The notes under the pieces: generated by a model
The model's input: only the letters and a program-made list of their open reading frames with translations
What the model was told of the DNA's origin: nothing
Databases searched by the model: none
Shown here: positions 1 to 5,846 of the stretch, piece after piece
Layout of the letters: each line of letters starts with the position of its first letter
How positions within the stretch are numbered: the stretch's first letter is position 1
Program-made: the position numbers and the translations under genes
IMG/VR virus record: IMGVR_UViG_2534681661_000011
Location: 1 to 5,846 of that record
Strand: one strand, 5' to 3'
DNA from: a virus
Taxonomy: Duplodnaviria; Heunggongvirae; Uroviricota; Caudoviricetes
DNA length: 5,846 bases

Positions 1-1
1 G

Positions 2-223
2 CTGGCGATTACCGGCTTTACTCCGAATGCCCTGCAACAGCGTGCTTCTCATTGCCTGTATACCATTGCCGAAGAACAAGCGACAAACAGTGCTTCAATC
101 TCTGCTTGTCACGCTCAGGGAATGTTAACGGATTTGCTGTTCATTGCGCTGATTCAGCAGGATCTGGAACTGGCACCAGAACGTATTCGTCATAGTGAAG
201 CGCTGGTGAAAAAACTGGTCTGA
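2..223 (+). CDS. yfhH: 3' end of a host transcriptional regulator gene (RpiR-like, SIS-domain C-terminus); partial, start lies upstream of the window
   Basis: Frame 2 is open from position 2 to a TGA at 221-223 and encodes ...LAITGFTPNALQQRASHCLYTIAEEQATNSASISACHAQGMLTDLLFIALIQQDLELAPERIRHSEALVKKLV*. Not in the ORF track because it has no in-window Met. Family and gene name are from memory: the tail resembles the C-terminus of SIS-domain regulators, and yfhH lies immediately upstream of yfhL in E. coli K-12. Not verified by search. Confidence 0.5.
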   Translation: MAITGFTPNALQQRASHCLYTIAEEQATNSASISACHAQGMLTDLLFIALIQQDLELAPERIRHSEALVKKLV

Positions 224-235
224 GTAAAGAATGCG

Positions 236-241
236 CGTATA
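236..241 (+). promoter_or_regulatory. Candidate -10 hexamer (TATAAT) of the native promoter of the downstream ferredoxin gene
   Basis: Perfect TATAAT at 236-241, about 38 nt upstream of the ATG at 279; a GAGAG Shine-Dalgarno-like motif sits 266-270. No convincing -35 element seen, so this is weak. Confidence 0.3.
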
Positions 242-278
242 ATGCCCGCCCGGTTTGTGTTGTTTTGAGAGTTTCCTT

Positions 279-335
279 ATGGCGTTGTTAATCACTAAAA
301 AATGCATCAATTGTGATATGTGTGAAATCAAATAA
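279..335 (+). pseudogene. yfhL: 5' fragment of a 4Fe-4S ferredoxin gene, truncated at the prophage junction (16 native codons, then 2 foreign codons and a stop)
   Basis: ATG at 279 encodes [16 protein letters not shown], which matches the N-terminus of E. coli YfhL as I recall it ([23 protein letters not shown]...). After codon 16 (gaa, 324-326) the sequence reads atc aaa taa instead of the expected Pro-Glu-Cys-Pro, so the gene is broken at about 326/327. Confidence 0.55.
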
Positions 336-523
336 AAACACATTTATTTTCATAGTGATACAGCAATGTGTTATTGAATGTGTTGTTGGATTTATGGTGC
401 AAAAAAATTTTGCATAAGTTCAGCAACACAAAGATCCCCCCCTTTTCTATAACGGTTCATTTGAGACTCCCCCTTGACTCCCTCTTCGAAATTGAAGACC
501 ATCACCTGTACATAATTACAGTC

Positions 524-802
524 ATGGATAATATTATGCGCAGAAAAGAGTCAAACGTTAGCAGTTTGCCGGAACTCACCAATTTTGAGGTAAGCTATTC
601 TCTGGTTACCAATGAAGTTTACTTGTCTGCATCCTTCACTGATAACATGGCCTGTATACCAAACTGGCCCTTACAAGAATTTCCGGATCAACTAATATGC
701 ATTTCTCGAGCAAAAGCTGTTGCCCTAATCGAAGAGCTCCAGAAGACCATCAACTATATGGATGCAGGAATAGTTCGAAGTTCAGGTAGCCTTCTCCAGT
801 AG
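524..802 (+). CDS. Hypothetical small protein (92 aa from the ATG at 524; alternative ATG at 536); may not be coding
   Basis: Sub-region of track ORF 368..802. The first 52 codons of that ORF run across a palindrome and poly-C tracts and look non-coding, so I start at the internal Met (MDNIMRRKESNV...). No good Shine-Dalgarno, several rare codons (aga, ata, cta, cga), no recognisable motif. Confidence 0.3.
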   Translation: MDNIMRRKESNVSSLPELTNFEVSYSLVTNEVYLSASFTDNMACIPNWPLQEFPDQLICISRAKAVALIEELQKTINYMDAGIVRSSGSLLQ

Positions 803-860
803 CTGACGAGTTTTATAATAATTTGATATATATATCGTTCAATATTAGCGAGTACTTATA

Positions 861-1508
861 ATGAGTGAATTTAGTAATCTTTTAAATAGCATACCTGGAT
901 GGTTATCCTCCTCCCTCACAGCTCTAGTTGGTACTCTTATTGGCGGATGGTTTACCCTAAAAGGAGTCACCCAACAAGCTAAGCTGTCTAAAGTAGAGAC
1001 AGAAAGAGAATCCCTTGAATTACAACTTTCAGTATTAAAAGGAGTTAAGGGAGAAGTTTTCACCCTAATCAATTTATATAATAAAAGGATGAAAACACAC
1101 ATTGATAATATAAAACCGGGACAAATGTTGATTCTCACATTCCCTGTAGGGGATGATAATTTCACATTCTATGAGCAAAATGCGAATGTCATTGCAAAAC
1201 TAAATGATTCTGCTAGAGACTCAATAATTAACATATACACATATTCACGCTCATTAATACAATCATTTAAAGGAAACAACAAACTCATTGAGGATTATGA
1301 AAAAATCCTTATTGGCATGGCAGACAATAACAAAGATAAAACCATGTATAAAAGATTACATGATGCAAAAATAAATGTAATGGTAGATTATGCTCAAGGG
1401 ATAAAAAATATTGATGCAGAGCTAAGAGATGCTGTCAATAAGGGATTCGACATTATCGACCAAGAAGTAAAGTCACTACAAATGAAATTAAACAAATTAG
1501 CTTCATAG
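861..1508 (+). CDS. Hypothetical membrane-anchored coiled-coil protein (215 aa); prophage cargo and candidate phage-exclusion or defence protein
   Basis: Clean ORF in a markedly AT-rich stretch compared with the flanking pin and tail genes (by inspection, not computed). One hydrophobic segment near the N-terminus (GWLSSSLTALVGTLIGGWFTL), then a charged Lys/Glu/Asn-rich region with heptad-like character. No catalytic motif recognised. Sits where e14 of E. coli K-12 carries mcrA. Confidence 0.7.
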   Translation: MSEFSNLLNSIPGWLSSSLTALVGTLIGGWFTLKGVTQQAKLSKVETERESLELQLSVLKGVKGEVFTLINLYNKRMKTHIDNIKPGQMLILTFPVGDDNFTFYEQNANVIAKLNDSARDSIINIYTYSRSLIQSFKGNNKLIEDYEKILIGMADNNKDKTMYKRLHDAKINVMVDYAQGIKNIDAELRDAVNKGFDIIDQEVKSLQMKLNKLAS

Positions 1509-1553
1509 AATGCTCCACTCCCTGTTCAATATTTTTACAAGCTTATCAGCCAG

Positions 1554-1586
1554 CCGTGGCACGTTCTTGCATACGACGTGCTACGG
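1554..1586. terminator. Stem-loop between the convergent cargo gene and pin; possible bidirectional terminator
   Basis: ccgtggcacg (1554-1563) pairs with cgtgctacgg (1577-1586), a 10-bp stem with one G-U wobble and a 13-nt loop, followed on the plus strand by tttcattta. Loop is long and the U-tract weak. Confidence 0.25.
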
Positions 1587-1588
1587 TT

Positions 1589-2143
1589 TCATTTATCTCC
1601 GACCGGAAACTTCTTATACAAAGTCGATACGCCAACATCATAAATGATCGCCACCTTCTGGCGAGGAACTCCTGATGCAATTAGTCGCCCGGCCTGCGCC
1701 CATTGTTCTGGTGTAAGTTTGGGACGACGTCCACCAATTCGTCCCTGTGCGCGAGCAGCTTCCAGTCCAGCTTTTGTTCGTTCAACAATCAGTTCTCGTT
1801 CCATTTCAGCCAGGGCACCCATCACATGAAAGAAAAAACGCCCCATCGGTGTGCTGGTATCAATTGAATCCGTCAGACTACGAAAGTTAATGCCTCGTTC
1901 GCGCAACCCCTCCACCAGCACGACAAGATGCCGCATACTGCGCCCCAGTCGGTCCAGCTTCCAGACAACCAGAGTGTCACCTGCCGATAATGTCCTAAGC
2001 AGTTTTTTCAGTCCCGGCCTTTCGGACTTTGTGCCGCTTATCTTGTCTTCAAAAATCAGCTCGCATCCTGCACAGTTCAGCGCATTACGTTGTAGATCTG
2101 TGTTCTGGTCATTTGTTGATACGCGTACATAGCCAATAAGCAT
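1589..2143 (-). CDS. pin: Serine-recombinase DNA invertase of the Pin/Gin/Cin/Hin family (184 aa)
   Basis: Encodes MLIGYVRVSTNDQNTDLQRNAL...GDTLVVWKLDRLGRS...MGRFFFHVMGALAEMERELIVERT...VSTLYKKFPVGDK, with the catalytic Ser in the VRVSTNDQ motif and a C-terminal HTH. I use the ATG at 2141-2143, which has an AGGGGGA Shine-Dalgarno 5-7 nt upstream, rather than the track's ATG at 2179, which adds 12 non-conserved residues. Confidence 0.95.
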   Translation of the reverse strand: MLIGYVRVSTNDQNTDLQRNALNCAGCELIFEDKISGTKSERPGLKKLLRTLSAGDTLVVWKLDRLGRSMRHLVVLVEGLRERGINFRSLTDSIDTSTPMGRFFFHVMGALAEMERELIVERTKAGLEAARAQGRIGGRRPKLTPEQWAQAGRLIASGVPRQKVAIIYDVGVSTLYKKFPVGDK

Positions 2144-2197
2144 GGTAGATCCCCCTGACAAAAGCAGGAATGATGCCATTTGCTCGTTATTTCTGCA

Positions 2198-2223
2198 TTT
2201 TCATAAACGTTGGTTTGGGAGAA
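2198..2223. other. Invertase crossover site, pin-proximal (26 bp)
   Basis: Plus strand ttttcataaacgttggtttgggagaa; its reverse complement ttctcccaaaccaacgtttatgaaaa shares the first 14 nt and the central AA with the site at 4123-4148 in inverted orientation. Matches the gix/cix/pix-type site architecture as I recall it. Confidence 0.8.
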
Positions 2224-2562
2224 GCGGCTAAAAGGAATGTAGGGACAGGGGCGAATCAGATACCTGATATGGGTAGCTTCACGCTTTCTGTTTCAGGTAC
2301 TGGATATCAAAAATTACCATCAGGTTTTATTCTTCAGTGGGGCTCAATCGGCGCACCAGGCATTGCACAGGATGTAGTAACCCATTTCCCGATTGCATTT
2401 CCAAACAGATGTCTGCGTGTTTTGGTCTCACAAGACTACACACCAGATAGCGGGGCTGTTGGTTATATTGCCTGTGCAGGTTTTAGTCCCGACCCGGTTA
2501 AATTTATATCCAGAGCCAGTACTCCTGGCCTCGGCGCTTCATTTTTAGCGTTAGGCTGTTAA
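2200..2562 (+). CDS. Silent alternative tail-fibre C-terminal segment (no start or promoter of its own); would be fused in-frame to the tail-fibre constant region after inversion
   Basis: Frame of track ORF 2170..2562. The coding part begins inside the crossover site: aac gtt ggt ttg gga gaa = NVGLGE, parallel to ENLGLGE in the expressed gene. Continues ...[29 protein letters not shown]..., which looks like a fibre tip domain. The leading MMPFARYF... of the track ORF is read-through of non-coding sequence. Confidence 0.65.
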
Positions 2563-2583
2563 TTTAGCTATATGGAGTGAAAA

Positions 2584-3024
2584 ATGAATTACATATATTC
2601 CGCGACTACAAACTCTTTCTATCCGCTGGAGATGAAAGAGGATTACACTCAAGCTGACTCATGGCCAGATGATGCTGTTGAAGTTGATGAGCAAGTGTAT
2701 ATTGAGTTTTCCGGATTACCGCCGAAAGGAAAAATCCGTATCGCTGGAGAAAATGGTTTTCCTGCATGGTCTGAAATTCCACCACCAACACATGAGGAAC
2801 AGATTGCTGCAGCCGAACTGGAAAAGCAGCAACTGATTAATCAGGCCAACGATTATATGAACAGTAAACAATGGCCTGGTAAAGCGGCTATTGGCCGGCT
2901 GAAAGGGGAGGAACTGGCGCAATATAATTTGTGGCTGGATTATCTGGACGCACTGGAACTGGTCGATACTTCCGGTGCGCCAGATATTGAATGGCCTACG
3001 CCTCCGGCAGTTCAGGCCAGATGA
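2584..3024 (+). CDS. Tail-fibre assembly protein (Tfa/U family, 146 aa), partner of the silent fibre variant
   Basis: GGAG 7 nt upstream of the ATG. C-terminus ...[27 protein letters not shown] is the conserved Tfa C-terminal motif. Lies directly downstream of the silent fibre segment inside the invertible region. Confidence 0.85.
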   Translation: MNYIYSATTNSFYPLEMKEDYTQADSWPDDAVEVDEQVYIEFSGLPPKGKIRIAGENGFPAWSEIPPPTHEEQIAAAELEKQQLINQANDYMNSKQWPGKAAIGRLKGEELAQYNLWLDYLDALELVDTSGAPDIEWPTPPAVQAR

Positions 3025-3601
3025 CATCCGGCGCGGTGCTGGTATCTGTTGCCGTCACCGCGTCAATGTAATCCAGCGCAGCGTTAAGTCGGGCGGTTTC
3101 TGCCTGCGTCAGATTCCGTCCGGCCTGCAATTTCAGCTGAATCAGACTAATGGAAGCCATTGCAGTATCAATCAGTGACTGACGCTGTGCTTCTGCCGCG
3201 CCTACTGCGGCGCTATGCTGTGCCACAGTATCTGTTACCCATTTCTCACCATCCCATTCATCGTATGGCGTTAACGGGGCGATAGTGGTTGTATTTTCAG
3301 GATAATCACCCGGAGCTGTGATTTCTTTCGATTCTCCTGTTTCGGTGCTATAGATGATTTCACCGCGATGGTCTGACACATATTCCCATGAGTTTAAATC
3401 TGCCGAACGGCAGATTGCATAACCAGCCTTATGTGTGCCAGGAGCATCTAAACAGGAATATGCAGGGATACCGACACCCACAGCAAGATATTCAGTTGAT
3501 GCAGAAATATACTCCCGTGTCTCACTGTCATAGTTATAAACGGTAATCTCTCCTGCCTTTGTGGCAATAAATTTACTATTCAAGATGGCGTTATACATCA
3601 T
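2996..3601 (-). CDS. Tail-fibre assembly protein (Tfa/U family, ~200 aa), partner of the currently expressed fibre
   Basis: Start ATG overlaps the stop of the upstream tail-fibre gene (ATGA, 3598-3601), consistent with translational coupling. C-terminus ...[30 protein letters not shown] is the conserved Tfa motif. Size and N-terminus ([11 protein letters not shown]...) resemble TfaE-type proteins from memory. Confidence 0.85.
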
Positions 3602-4473
3602 GCAGCCCTCACAATGTAATTAAATGAAATATTACGTGGGCGTGTCTCTGCTGCACCGACAATACTGGTACTCAACCCCGTCGCTGTTCGTTTGTTATTT
3701 TTATTTCCTTCAATCAGACAGTTGTAATCATCATTACCAATTAACGAATTAGTGGCATCAATACCGTCCGGGGACAAGGCATTAGTTGTAGAACTTAAAG
3801 TCAGCATCTCGTCTGAACTTGGAAGATTTTTTAATGGTATTTCATTGCGAGAAATACCCGCGTAAAAAAAGGACTCATGCCTGTGCGCTTCAAAAGAGTC
3901 ATCCTGAAGACTTAGCAAGGCACGTCCCGCATCCACACCACGCCCGTCATCCCAGCCACGAATAAACTCACCACGTAAATCAGGCAATTTATTTGTCGGA
4001 TAAGCCTTTGCCAGTTCCGGGTATTCTTCAGCAGAAAAAGCGGCACCGTTGCATTTCAGCCAGCCTGTTGGCGGAGTGGCGGAAGGCCACGGAACAGGCA
4101 CGCCAACGGGTAATGCCGAACCTTCTCCCAAACCAAGGTTTTCGAGAGCCGTTTTCACCGTGCCATCCGATTTGATATCACCAAACGGATTCTTGCGGCT
4201 CAGGTATTCAACAGCAAACCCCGATCCCAGCAATTCAACAAAACCGGGCAGATCACCATTATCAAGCACATCCCGTTGCGTTTTGTCACTTACAAACTGG
4301 GCCAGAGCTGCAGCAATAAAGCTGGCCTGCCGAATAACCTTATTGACTTGCGCACTGGATGCTTTCCCTGCTGTAAATCCGGATAAAAGCGCAGGCAACG
4401 CTTCCCATTCCTCCTGCGACATAACATTGGCATTCCGATCAGTTGCAAACGCTTTAAAGTCATTTTTCGCCAT
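3598..4473 (-). CDS. Tail-fibre protein: constant N-terminal region (outside the invertible segment) fused to variable region A
   Basis: Encodes [27 protein letters not shown]... and ends ...[15 protein letters not shown], with a tail-collar-like region ([24 protein letters not shown]). I prefer the ATG at 4471-4473 (GGAG ~10 nt upstream; TGATG overlap with the upstream gene's stop) over the track start at 4491, which has its Shine-Dalgarno too close and overlaps the upstream gene by 19 nt. The crossover site at 4123-4148 lies in-frame inside the gene (..[10 protein letters not shown]..). Confidence 0.85.
4123..4148. other. Invertase crossover site, pin-distal (26 bp), inside the tail-fibre gene at the constant/variable boundary
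   Basis: ttctcccaaaccaaggttttcgagag; inverted partner of 2198-2223 (14 of 14 identical in the inner half, same central AA). Confidence 0.8.
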
Positions 4474-5153
4474 CAGAGTAATACTCCCCATGCCCCTACA
4501 TCAAAACCACTGATGAATTCGTTATCCATATCAAAACCAAAAAATTTTGAACCTTCCGATGGAGTTTCCACCGAAGGTGTTTCAATGCCACCCGCCCAAA
4601 CCCCGGCGGCTTTTACTGTGAGATATCCCTGTTTAATTGCAGCAATTAACTCACGCGATACATCTGAAATATCAGTATCAGGAAAGAGCCAGACCGATAT
4701 CGTCATGTCCTGGTTATCGACTATCTGCATTCGCAGTCCGGATCCTGCTGTCGCCGCGTCAAGAATTGCTGGAAGCGAATCATTCCGTCCGTCCCAGTTA
4801 TTAATCGCAATCTTCGCTTTAAGGATGACACGATAAGTTTCATCGCTGAGGTACATGTATCCGGAATCAGGATCGTATGGCCCCTGCCATACACCCTGAT
4901 CATATCCAAGCCCGTCGGTATCCCAGCTGAAATAGACACCTGAGATAGGCTGGCTGACAACACGGCTACGTCCGATCCACAATCCAAGAATGTCAAGTTG
5001 CACACCAACCGCAGAGTCAATATCAAATGCAGTAATCAGCCCTCTGGTGGCAGCCGCAACATCAATAAGCGGCCGGGTCATCAGATCAACATGTGCAAGA
5101 AATTTAGGTTTGGTGGCGTGGTAGTTCGTGATCAGTTCGGTGTATTTGCTCAT
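4473..5153 (-). CDS. Phage tail/baseplate protein immediately upstream of the tail fibre (YmfQ / Mu gp48 / P2 gpI-like by position), 226 aa
   Basis: Complete ORF whose start overlaps the upstream gene's stop (ATGA at 5150-5153) and whose stop overlaps the tail-fibre start (TGATG at 4471-4475). Assignment is by gene order in Mu/e14-type tail modules; the family was not confirmed by sequence motif. Confidence 0.6.
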
Positions 5154-5452
5154 GACTCCACCGTTATAACGATATTTTCCGGTGTACAGGACGCAGATTC
5201 GTTGTATCTGATATCAATGTTTGATGACGACAAAGCCCCCGGGGATTTCCCAATCGTCAGTTCCTGAATATCGTAATAGCGTGCATTCCCGCCACTCACC
5301 ACGCCAAGATTCGCCGGTGAGTAAATGCGACTTAAAAGGACCGAATCACCAATCATCAGACTATTGATATAGTCGGAAATAGCCTGCTGGATCTGCTGCC
5401 CTATCTGTGAGGTATAACCCGTAAAAACTTTTAATTTAATCCGGGCATAAAC
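5150..5452 (-). pseudogene. 3' portion of the next upstream tail/baseplate gene (baseplate J-like by position), apparently cut off by the IS element
   Basis: Minus-strand frame ...VYARIKLKVFTGYTSQIGQQIQQAISDYINSLMIGDSVLLSRIYSPANLGVV...NIVITVES* is protein-like and coupled to the downstream gene. Only ~100 codons remain before the putative IS end at 5453; the frame stays open into the IS by chance until a stop at 5585-5587. Confidence 0.4.
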
Positions 5453-5846
5453 GTAAGCGTACAGCCTGAACCGTCTGGTCAGAATCTGACGAATTAGACA
5501 AAGTGGTGTCCACCAAATAAGTAGTGGGAACCAAAGTGTCAGATATGCAGAAAAATGTGACTCCCGGCAGGCGAAAAGGCAGCCCTAATTATCCTCCCGA
5601 ATTTAAACAGCAGCTCGTTGCTGCCTCCTGTGAACCCGGGATATCCATCTCAAAACTTGCTCTTGAAAATGGCATTAACGCCAATCTGTTGTTCAAATGG
5701 CGACAACAATGGCGCGAGGGAAAGCTGCTATTACCTTCTTCAGAGAGCCCCCAGCTACTTCCTGTGACTCTCGATGCAGCTGCCGAACAGCCAGAATCGC
5801 TCGCAGAGGACCCGAAAACCCTCAGTATCAGCTGTGAGGTAACGTT
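5453..5846 (+). mobile_element. Left end of an insertion sequence, probably IS66 family; continues beyond the window
   Basis: GTAAGCG at 5453-5459 matches the characteristic IS66-family terminus as I recall it, about 90 bp upstream of an HTH accessory gene. The exact boundary is uncertain without the other end. Confidence 0.5.
5545..5846 (+). CDS. IS-encoded HTH accessory/transposase protein (TnpA/OrfA-like), N-terminal part; open to the end of the window
   Basis: Encodes MQKNVTPGRRKGSPNYPPEFKQQLVAASCEPGISISKLALENGINANLLFKWRQQWREGKL..., the typical RR..S.EFK...V....G.S.........LL.KWR helix-turn-helix signature of IS3/IS66-type first ORFs. No stop within 100 codons. Confidence 0.6.
   Translation, partial: MQKNVTPGRRKGSPNYPPEFKQQLVAASCEPGISISKLALENGINANLLFKWRQQWREGKLLLPSSESPQLLPVTLDAAAEQPESLAEDPKTLSISCEVT

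Follow-up and report, generated by a model that had tools for sequence, protein, structure and literature searches.

The 5,846-nucleotide (nt) stretch of DNA analyzed here, referred to below as the window (positions 1 to 5,846 of IMG/VR record IMGVR_UViG_2534681661_000011), runs from the 3' end of the host gene yfhH through the start of the ferredoxin gene yfhL and into a prophage, in which two open reading frames on the plus strand (ORF88 and ORF215) are followed by a Pin invertase gene on the minus strand, tail-fibre and baseplate genes, and an IS66-family element (Table 1). When window positions 1-900 were compared by megablast with 5,426 complete Escherichia coli genomes, every genome was matched, the great majority over 1-326 (yfhH and yfhL) at up to 100% identity, and at uninterrupted yfhH-yfhL loci the match was confined to those 326 positions. 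A three-way alignment with a K-12-like empty site placed the start of divergence at 327, after codon 16 (GAA) of yfhL. The frame opened by the yfhL ATG at 279 gains just Ile-Lys-stop beyond 326, and its TAA at 333-335 was kept in all five of the loci aligned at this prophage end (attL). The initial annotation had read the region as 16 codons of yfhL followed by unrelated DNA, with a junction at about 326/327, and both points stand: 1-326 is the empty-site yfhH-yfhL sequence, phage DNA begins at 327, and the stated junction, taken as the right-hand end of host identity, is exact. The insertion point falls within the first cluster motif of YfhL, between CxxCxxC and xxxCP, and the remnant ORF at 279-335 cannot be a ferredoxin because it holds just three of the four Cys residues of that CxxCxxCxxxCP motif. 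Window 224-523 is the attL (B-O-P') of a temperate phage whose tyrosine integrase inserts it at the 5' end of yfhL.

The other end of the element, carrying the rest of yfhL, was found in the near-identical prophage of E. coli ETEC-2264, to which window 1-5452 is 99.9% identical. In that genome, phage DNA occupies record positions 2,872,771 to 2,914,491 (41,721 bp) and forms a myovirus-type prophage with its own replication module (DNA polymerase, helicase, DUF2800, DUF2815, and VapE). Its far end carries an HTH_17 gene, a 465-amino acid (aa) tyrosine recombinase gene on the opposite strand, a 214-bp P arm, and an intact, annotated 86-codon yfhL. The recombinase matches PF00589 (30 bits against a cut-off of 27.1) and is 76% identical to the annotated integrase of phage OS31, and the 66-aa HTH_17 protein adjoining it gives a weak match (25.8 bits against a Pfam cut-off of 27) at a position annotated as excisionase in OS31. 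At this right-hand site (attR), the gene reads ATG TCT TTA CTA ATC ACT ... TGT GAA CCC GAA TGC, so that a phage-borne start encoding MSLL in place of the host MALL (Ala2Ser) stands in frame with host codons 17-86. The rebuilt YfhL matches the NCBIfam equivalog NF033683 with 135 bits against a cut-off of 86. A direct repeat, which the initial annotation had suggested looking for, is also present, as 38 nt (289-326) recurring at the other prophage end before the remaining yfhL; the likeness of the window to yfhL is thus not due to chance. Judged from this arrangement, yfhL is preserved as a whole gene despite the insertion, with its 5' end replaced by a phage-borne copy. The gene had been described as truncated, which is true of the attL copy, cut after 16 codons, but not of the functional gene, which is rebuilt at full length at attR; an insertion seen at attL should accordingly not be scored as a loss of yfhL, since the gene is restored at the other end.

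Table 1. Features of the window, with coordinates counted from its first nucleotide
Feature	Position	Strand	Basis
yfhH 3' end (host, MurR/RpiR regulator)	1-223	+	RefSeq annotation of the identical ETEC-2264 locus and of K-12-like genomes
Host yfhH-yfhL intergenic region (55 nt) with candidate yfhL promoter	224-278	+	100% identical to empty-site genomes
attL remnant ORF: yfhL codons 1-16, phage codons IK, TAA	279-335	+	Direct reading, alignments
38-nt direct repeat, attL and attR of this lineage	289-326		Same at L002 3455-3492, before yfhL codon 17
Common core O (AATTGTGATATGTGTGAA)	309-326		Four-way attP/attB/attL/attR alignment
P' arm of the attachment site	327-452		Conservation across 154 E. 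coli genomes
C-rich, G-poor untranslated stretch, possible Rho-loading (rut) region	409-512	+	Composition; function inferred
ORF88, phrog_17793 phage gene (88 aa; open frame from 524)	536-802	+	PHROG match
ORF215 cargo gene	861-1508	+	Predicted N-terminal membrane helix and long helical bundle
Pin-type serine DNA invertase (pinE-like)	1589-2143	-	Pfam Resolvase and HTH_7; RefSeq annotation in ETEC-2264
Start of IS66-family element within baseplate J gene; outside the junction	5453-5846	+	Identity to ETEC-2264 stops at 5452

The unintegrated phage site (attP) was available for direct comparison with the bacterial site (attB). Two IMG/VR viral contigs, L037 and L039, were found with a 20-nt P'-arm pattern and contain int, P arm, core, and P' arm contiguously. 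The order in L037 is helicase, xis, int, P arm, surrogate yfhL codons 1-16 plus IK-stop, P' arm, ORF88, ORF215, and pin; its segment from helicase to P arm is 97.4% identical to the attR-side DNA of ETEC-2264, and its segment from the core through the P' arm, ORF88, and ORF215 to pin is 98.5% identical to window 289-2225. The attP reads ATG TCT TTA CTA ATT ACT AAA CGC TGT ATT AAT TGT GAT ATG TGT GAA / ATC AAA TAA, with the slash marking the point at which host identity ends in the window. The sole stretch identical between this attP and the E. coli attB is AATTGTGATATGTGTGAA, 18 nt at window 309-326, and strand exchange must therefore fall within it. An attR in Shigella (L021) equals P+O+B' exactly. 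An inverted repeat ATCAC...GTGAT (291-317) had been considered as a pair of core-type binding sites and was dropped, as attP differs from attB there. Three vB_EcoM-6xx "phage" records were likewise rejected as evidence of attP, being prophage predictions with host flanks (tadA, yfhB, yfhH). The exact 57-nt pattern taken from the ETEC-2264 attR had no match in IMG/VR, because the native attP differs from it at four bases.

Two points weigh against the simplest form of this reconstruction. The attR was read in the near-identical ETEC-2264 prophage, which stands in for the copy in the window. Furthermore, the ETEC-2264 attR carries host-type bases at four polymorphic sites (293-308) left of the 18-nt core (L002 3455-3474 compared with L037, L039, and L021), which is unexpected from a simple single exchange with an attP of the IMG/VR type. 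These four bases account for a repeat of 38 nt in this lineage where 18 nt would be expected, and they may reflect either an attP variant or an attL-to-attR conversion.

The arms flanking the core are conserved in their own right. The P' arm (327 to about 452) is kept in both SEN34-like myoviral and lambdoid (gpJ, Hok) prophages, beyond which the sequence follows the cargo class; the int/att module thus moves between phage types. Four copies of the motif xTGTGTTx occur in the P' arm (337-344 and 421-431 on the minus strand, 363-372 and 377-385 on the plus strand), and two more stand in tandem in the P arm, where they are nearly invariant across genera (TGTGTTGCnGTTTTGTGTTAC). The form WTGTGTTG occurs four times in the window against 0.58 expected. 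By analogy with lambda-type attP, these repeated motifs may be arm-type integrase sites. No other local hairpin in the region, whether as RNA or as DNA, is as stable as the one formed by a long imperfect inverted repeat at 378-431, in which two opposed TGTGTTG motifs surround an AT hairpin (TGCAAAAAAATTTTGCA) and which lacks a U tract. The same motif as in the putative arm-type sites also appears in host DNA at 255-262, just upstream of the yfhL start (TTGTGTTG, in the context CGGTTTGTGTTG), and it resembles the phage P-arm string CGGTTTTGTGTTG; the host copy may be due to chance or may be a remnant of shared ancestry of the host upstream region and its phage-borne surrogate. A LexA-box-like CTG-N10-CAG element (CACTGGATCAACATACAGTA; Citrobacter version CTGTATCAACATACAG) lies in the P arm outside the window (L002 3351-3370), where it shares bases with the -35 of the promoter candidate rated best in the direction of int (TTGATC-18-TAAACT with TGn). 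This block is kept across genera, with CAG changed to CAC in Serratia and Erwinia, and suggests a possible SOS control of int.

The explanation that we hold with high confidence is that the region is the attL of a phage replacing the 5' end of yfhL, with an attP-borne start restoring yfhL at attR and the host promoter left facing the cargo. The structure in this account is what the sequences themselves display, and the steps concerning read-through and arm-type sites are those that we infer. The attP sits between the divergent int and cargo genes and carries a yfhL start of its own, comprising upstream DNA, start codon, codons 1-16, and then Ile-Lys-stop. Recombination in the 18-nt core would link this phage-borne 5' end to host codons 17-86 at attR, by which the lysogen would retain a full-length ferredoxin (Ala2Ser) under upstream DNA supplied by the phage. 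The host promoter, ribosome-binding region, and codons 1-16 stay at attL as an 18-codon dead-end ORF facing the P' arm, then ORF88 (phrog_17793) and ORF215, and transcripts from the host promoter may cross the P' arm into this cargo. In the free phage, the surrogate yfhL upstream region and its mini-ORF occupy the exact position taken by the host promoter in the lysogen; it follows from the attP geometry that integration swaps the host and surrogate yfhL upstream regions reciprocally.

The distribution of the site among the complete E. coli genomes speaks for this explanation. The yfhL site was uninterrupted in 5,266 of the 5,426 genomes and occupied in 160; the P arm was present in exactly 160 genomes and the P' arm in 154. 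A yfhL coding sequence was annotated under the P arm in 40/40 sampled rows. Relatives of the integrase with 58-94% identity were found in Kluyvera, Citrobacter, Shimwellia, Sodalis, Pantoea, Symbiopectobacterium, Serratia, Providencia, Erwinia, and others. Among 17 such loci in other Enterobacterales, 15 have a full-length yfhL upstream and divergent (213-216 bp in 14, 273 bp in one); of the remaining two, one has frameshifted yfhL fragments only and one gave no yfhL match. The surrogate N-terminal codons were in frame, with an ATG or GTG start, in all 17 family members compared; a Raoultella locus (L019), which gave no alignment and has no adjoining yfhL, was left out. Variable sites at codon positions 1, 2, and 3 numbered 5, 2, and 7 in codons 2-8 and 0, 0, and 7 in codons 9-16, a third-position bias that is consistent with selection to keep the ferredoxin.

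Whether the orphaned host promoter feeds the cargo in the lysogen was judged from sequence features. As the initial annotation had proposed, the DNA upstream of yfhL and the start codon are intact, as are the 16 codons that follow, and all point in the same direction as both cargo ORFs. The stretch 336-523, in which a strong terminator would have spoken against that annotation, contains no intrinsic terminator; a tool scan, a custom hairpin-plus-U scan, and a fold of the whole region detected none on the plus strand over 244-560. The candidate yfhL promoter has a perfect -10 (TATAAT, 238-243) and a weak -35 (TGGTCT, 216-221), and promoter activity of the yfhL 5' region has been reported, qualitatively only (PMC2984482). 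Myoviral cargo is co-directional with yfhL in all three cargo classes at the site. In the lambdoid occupant L007, whose neighbours are antisense, two strong plus-strand terminator hairpins follow the P' arm (6312-6333 and 6566-6590; 0.8 terminator-like sites were expected there and four were seen). Hairpins of this kind are missing ahead of the co-directional cargo of the window, L006, and L008, and in another cargo class at the site the first plus-strand terminator comes directly after the cargo pair.

Several observations weigh against a substantial role for this promoter. It was not called by the consensus promoter scan, and its score of 8.6 in a rough position weight matrix (PWM) lies under the shuffle median for the best site. 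About 190 nt from the remnant stop to ORF88 are untranslated, and within this gap the stretch 409-512, measured over 78 nt at a time, reaches C/G ratios of 2.9-3.1, where the 99th percentile for the whole window is 2.78, and could load Rho; a C-rich, G-poor composition is typical of Rho-loading sites. Weak promoter candidates lie immediately upstream of ORF88 (TTGACT-17-GACCAT, 474-502) and of ORF215 (TTCTCC-16-TATAAT, 792-819). In SEN34, which has another integrase and another site, ORF88 has the same orientation relative to attP, and co-directionality is therefore a property of the backbone and not an adaptation to yfhL. Since the untranslated C-rich gap, the cargo-proximal candidates, and the SEN34 orientation must be weighed against an intact, terminator-free geometry, we regard a material contribution of host-promoter read-through to cargo expression as possible but doubtful on the sequence features at hand.

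The alternative that fares best, to which we give an even chance, is that the cargo is expressed from its own weak or phage-controlled promoters and that host read-through is stopped, for example by Rho, in the P' arm or leader, leaving the orphaned promoter inconsequential. The C/G ratio of about 3 over 409-512, the candidates at 474-502 and 792-819, and the retention of ORF88 beside a different att site in SEN34 all speak for it; set against them, the candidates are no better than shuffled sequence, no terminator hairpin was found, and composition is an unreliable predictor of Rho dependence. The cargo-proximal candidates score like the host promoter, and in neither the consensus scan nor the rough PWM did the host promoter, the surrogate promoter, or a cargo leader do better than shuffled sequence. 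The stronger claim for the host, that the cargo of the lysogen is driven chiefly by the orphaned yfhL promoter, is rather unlikely. It draws on the intact, co-directional promoter region and start codon with no intrinsic terminator before the cargo, on the lack of a strong cargo-proximal promoter in the scans, and on the occurrence of terminators in the one occupant class with antisense neighbours, but class L006 at the same site has consensus promoter matches directly upstream of its first gene, and the ORF215 family occurs in unrelated contexts where other promoters must serve, in addition to the long, untranslated, C-rich and G-poor gap and the weak candidates in the window itself. If the host promoter does feed the variable cargo slot, the site would be a simple case of a phage borrowing a host promoter for lysogen-expressed genes. 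An extension of this idea, in which the reciprocal promoter exchange reports the integration state, with the host promoter constitutively feeding the cargo only in the lysogen and the ferredoxin possibly becoming SOS-sensitive, we consider improbable; were it true, a cargo possibly serving exclusion or defence would be wired to a housekeeping host promoter only when integrated, and yfhL would stand under phage DNA with a LexA-box-like element beside the int promoter.

The remaining alternatives concern the structure itself. That the prophage inactivates yfhL, splitting the gene and leaving the lysogen without this ferredoxin, would follow from the attL copy cut after 16 codons and from the listing of yfhL among the genes disrupted by integration (Bobay et al. 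2013, PMC3603311). However, attR holds a full 86-codon ORF with a phage-borne start, every occupied genome that was sampled has it annotated as YfhL, its product scores above the NCBIfam equivalog cut-off, and the surrogate codons remain in frame across genera, so that we give this reading very little credence. We give still less to the proposal that a prophage of the e14 family has relocated from icd to yfhL. The initial annotation was right that the site is yfhL and not the icd site of e14, but the element is not a relocated e14, as just pin and tfaE/stfE are e14-like. The pin gene shares 94% nt and 95% aa identity with pinE of the K-12 e14 and bears the RefSeq gene name pinE, and the tfaE/stfE segment is 88-90% identical to e14 at the nt level. 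Against an e14 origin, the integrase shows no significant similarity to IntE of e14 (best E=0.047 over 52 aa), the replication module (DNA polymerase, DUF2800, DUF2815, VapE) and the 42-kb size are unlike e14, and the matches elsewhere are to SEN34, of which 12 kb were compared: the DUF2612 baseplate protein (81% aa), the tail-fibre N-terminus (69%), and ORF88 (81%). The integrase has no significant similarity to that of SEN34 either. By gene content, the element is a 41.7-kb SEN34-like myovirus prophage, not e14. That ORF 279-335, which does have a start and a stop codon, is an intact, divergent small gene and not a yfhL fragment is refuted by the alignments and can practically be dismissed, given that its first 48 nt are identical to empty-site yfhL and the rest are the first 9 nt of the P' arm, which follows the phage-borne copy in attP as well.

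Beyond the attachment site, the slot from attL to pin holds variable cargo, as a comparison of window 327-1588 with L006 6001-7400 and L008 6001-7670 shows. The gene sets seen in it are ORF88 with ORF215; a 108-aa protein with DUF2335 and a small ORF; and ORF88 with a 281-aa protein; the equivalent slot of SEN34 holds an O-acetyltransferase. ORF88 belongs to phrog_17793 (PHROG E=1e-43 over residues 5-92) and had no Pfam, NCBIfam, PADLOC, or PDB match; its counterpart in SEN34 (SEN34_31) likewise lies beside attP and int. Because the upstream ATG at 524, which would give 92 codons, is CTG in relatives, the real start of ORF88 is probably the ATG at 536. ORF215 had no family in Pfam, PHROGs, PADLOC, or NCBIfam and no match in a PDB sequence search, and its 216 homologues across Enterobacterales are all unnamed. 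The family is a widespread stand-alone gene in Enterobacterales (loci L026-L033); in Providencia prophages, a homologue stands alone downstream of genes for a cI-like repressor and an HSDR_N protein, in a rex-like position, and in Enterobacter one lies beside higBA. The AlphaFold2 model of ORF215 (pLDDT 84) shows an N-terminal hydrophobic helix, itself poorly modelled, followed by a long helical bundle, and a Foldseek search of this model against PDB returned no fold match. A reasonable guess is that ORF215 is a lysogen-expressed membrane protein such as an exclusion factor.

Further along the window, 2170-3601 forms a tail-fibre segment that is Pin-invertible; its tail-fibre assembly genes are convergent, and it includes a fragmentary C-terminus of a gp53-like tail fibre. 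Many genome matches are split into two or three pieces over this segment, consistent with inversion variants. The IS66-family element, whose tnpA starts at about 5545, lies in the baseplate J/gp47 gene and is not present in the ETEC-2264 prophage, which continues with baseplate J/gp47 at that point; in FDAARGOS_1059, the matching DNA carries an annotated IS66-like tnpA. With a baseplate gene interrupted in this way, the prophage of the window is probably defective. Searches of the window for Rfam families and for tRNAs gave no match.

The junction is an ordinary, already documented prophage attachment at yfhL, and the present analysis refines a known case. The gene is among those interrupted by prophages in E. 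coli and Salmonella (PMC3603311) and is a reported insertion site of Stx2b prophages (PMC10675304, PMC12029490). What is added here is the exact core and arms, the direct attP form, and a yfhL that is rebuilt and not disrupted. The practical value lies in annotation: the result qualifies the listing of yfhL among disrupted genes in the earlier survey, and the exact core (309-326) and arms ease the delimiting of yfhL prophages, including Stx2b prophages.

Among known systems, e14 resembles the present element in having a pin-invertible tail-fibre cassette beside att-proximal cargo, and it holds mcrA in the att-proximal slot beyond pin, where ORF88 and ORF215 stand here. Like phage 21, e14 integrates in a coding gene (icd) and supplies a substitute gene end that keeps the ORF intact (PMC3603311), but there the 3' end of icd is replaced, whereas here it is the 5' end of yfhL including its promoter, and the integrases are unrelated and the backbones differ. 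SEN34, a Brunovirus, shares the order of tail fibre, cargo, ORF88, attP, and int and differs in its integrase and replication module, with no pin cassette in the region compared. The lambda-type attP offers a likeness in its short core flanked by conserved P and P' arms (about 125-215 bp here) and in an arm motif occurring in both orientations beside int and an HTH_17 excisionase-like gene, although the binding sites in the present case are predicted. A further parallel is the Serratia phage vB_SspS_OS31 (MT843276), described as inserted in the homologous gene for the ferredoxin, where a repeat of 23 bp was noted (Bujak et al. 2020, PMC7556043). Its integrase is 76% identical to ours, and its 23-bp att repeat lies at the same codons of the homologous 2[4Fe-4S] ferredoxin gene (window 303-325), with the OS31 record beginning inside a surrogate ATG-GCT-TTA-CTA start. 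OS31 differs in being a lambdoid siphovirus of Serratia with a LexA-controlled dinI-like gene as att-proximal cargo. The consulted portions of that paper state that many viruses reside in homologous genes and contain no description of gene reconstitution (PMC7556043).

An architectural parallel is provided by the islands and prophages with dusA-specific integrases, in which an element-borne copy replaces the 5' end of the gene (Farrugia et al. 2015, PMC4482086). In those elements, too, a new 5' end is supplied that keeps the ORF at full length, the displaced original 5' end marks the outer boundary, and the integrase adjoins the rebuilt gene and is divergent to it. The corresponding features are present here as a break after codon 16 of 86, an in-frame element-borne start, and the original 5' end at the distal boundary (224-326). 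The target differs, being a ferredoxin gene entered inside its first CxxCxxC cluster motif, and the likeness rests on architecture, with no kinship of the integrase families claimed. Unlike the dusA elements, the occupants of the yfhL site described here are complete tailed prophages with an 18-nt core.

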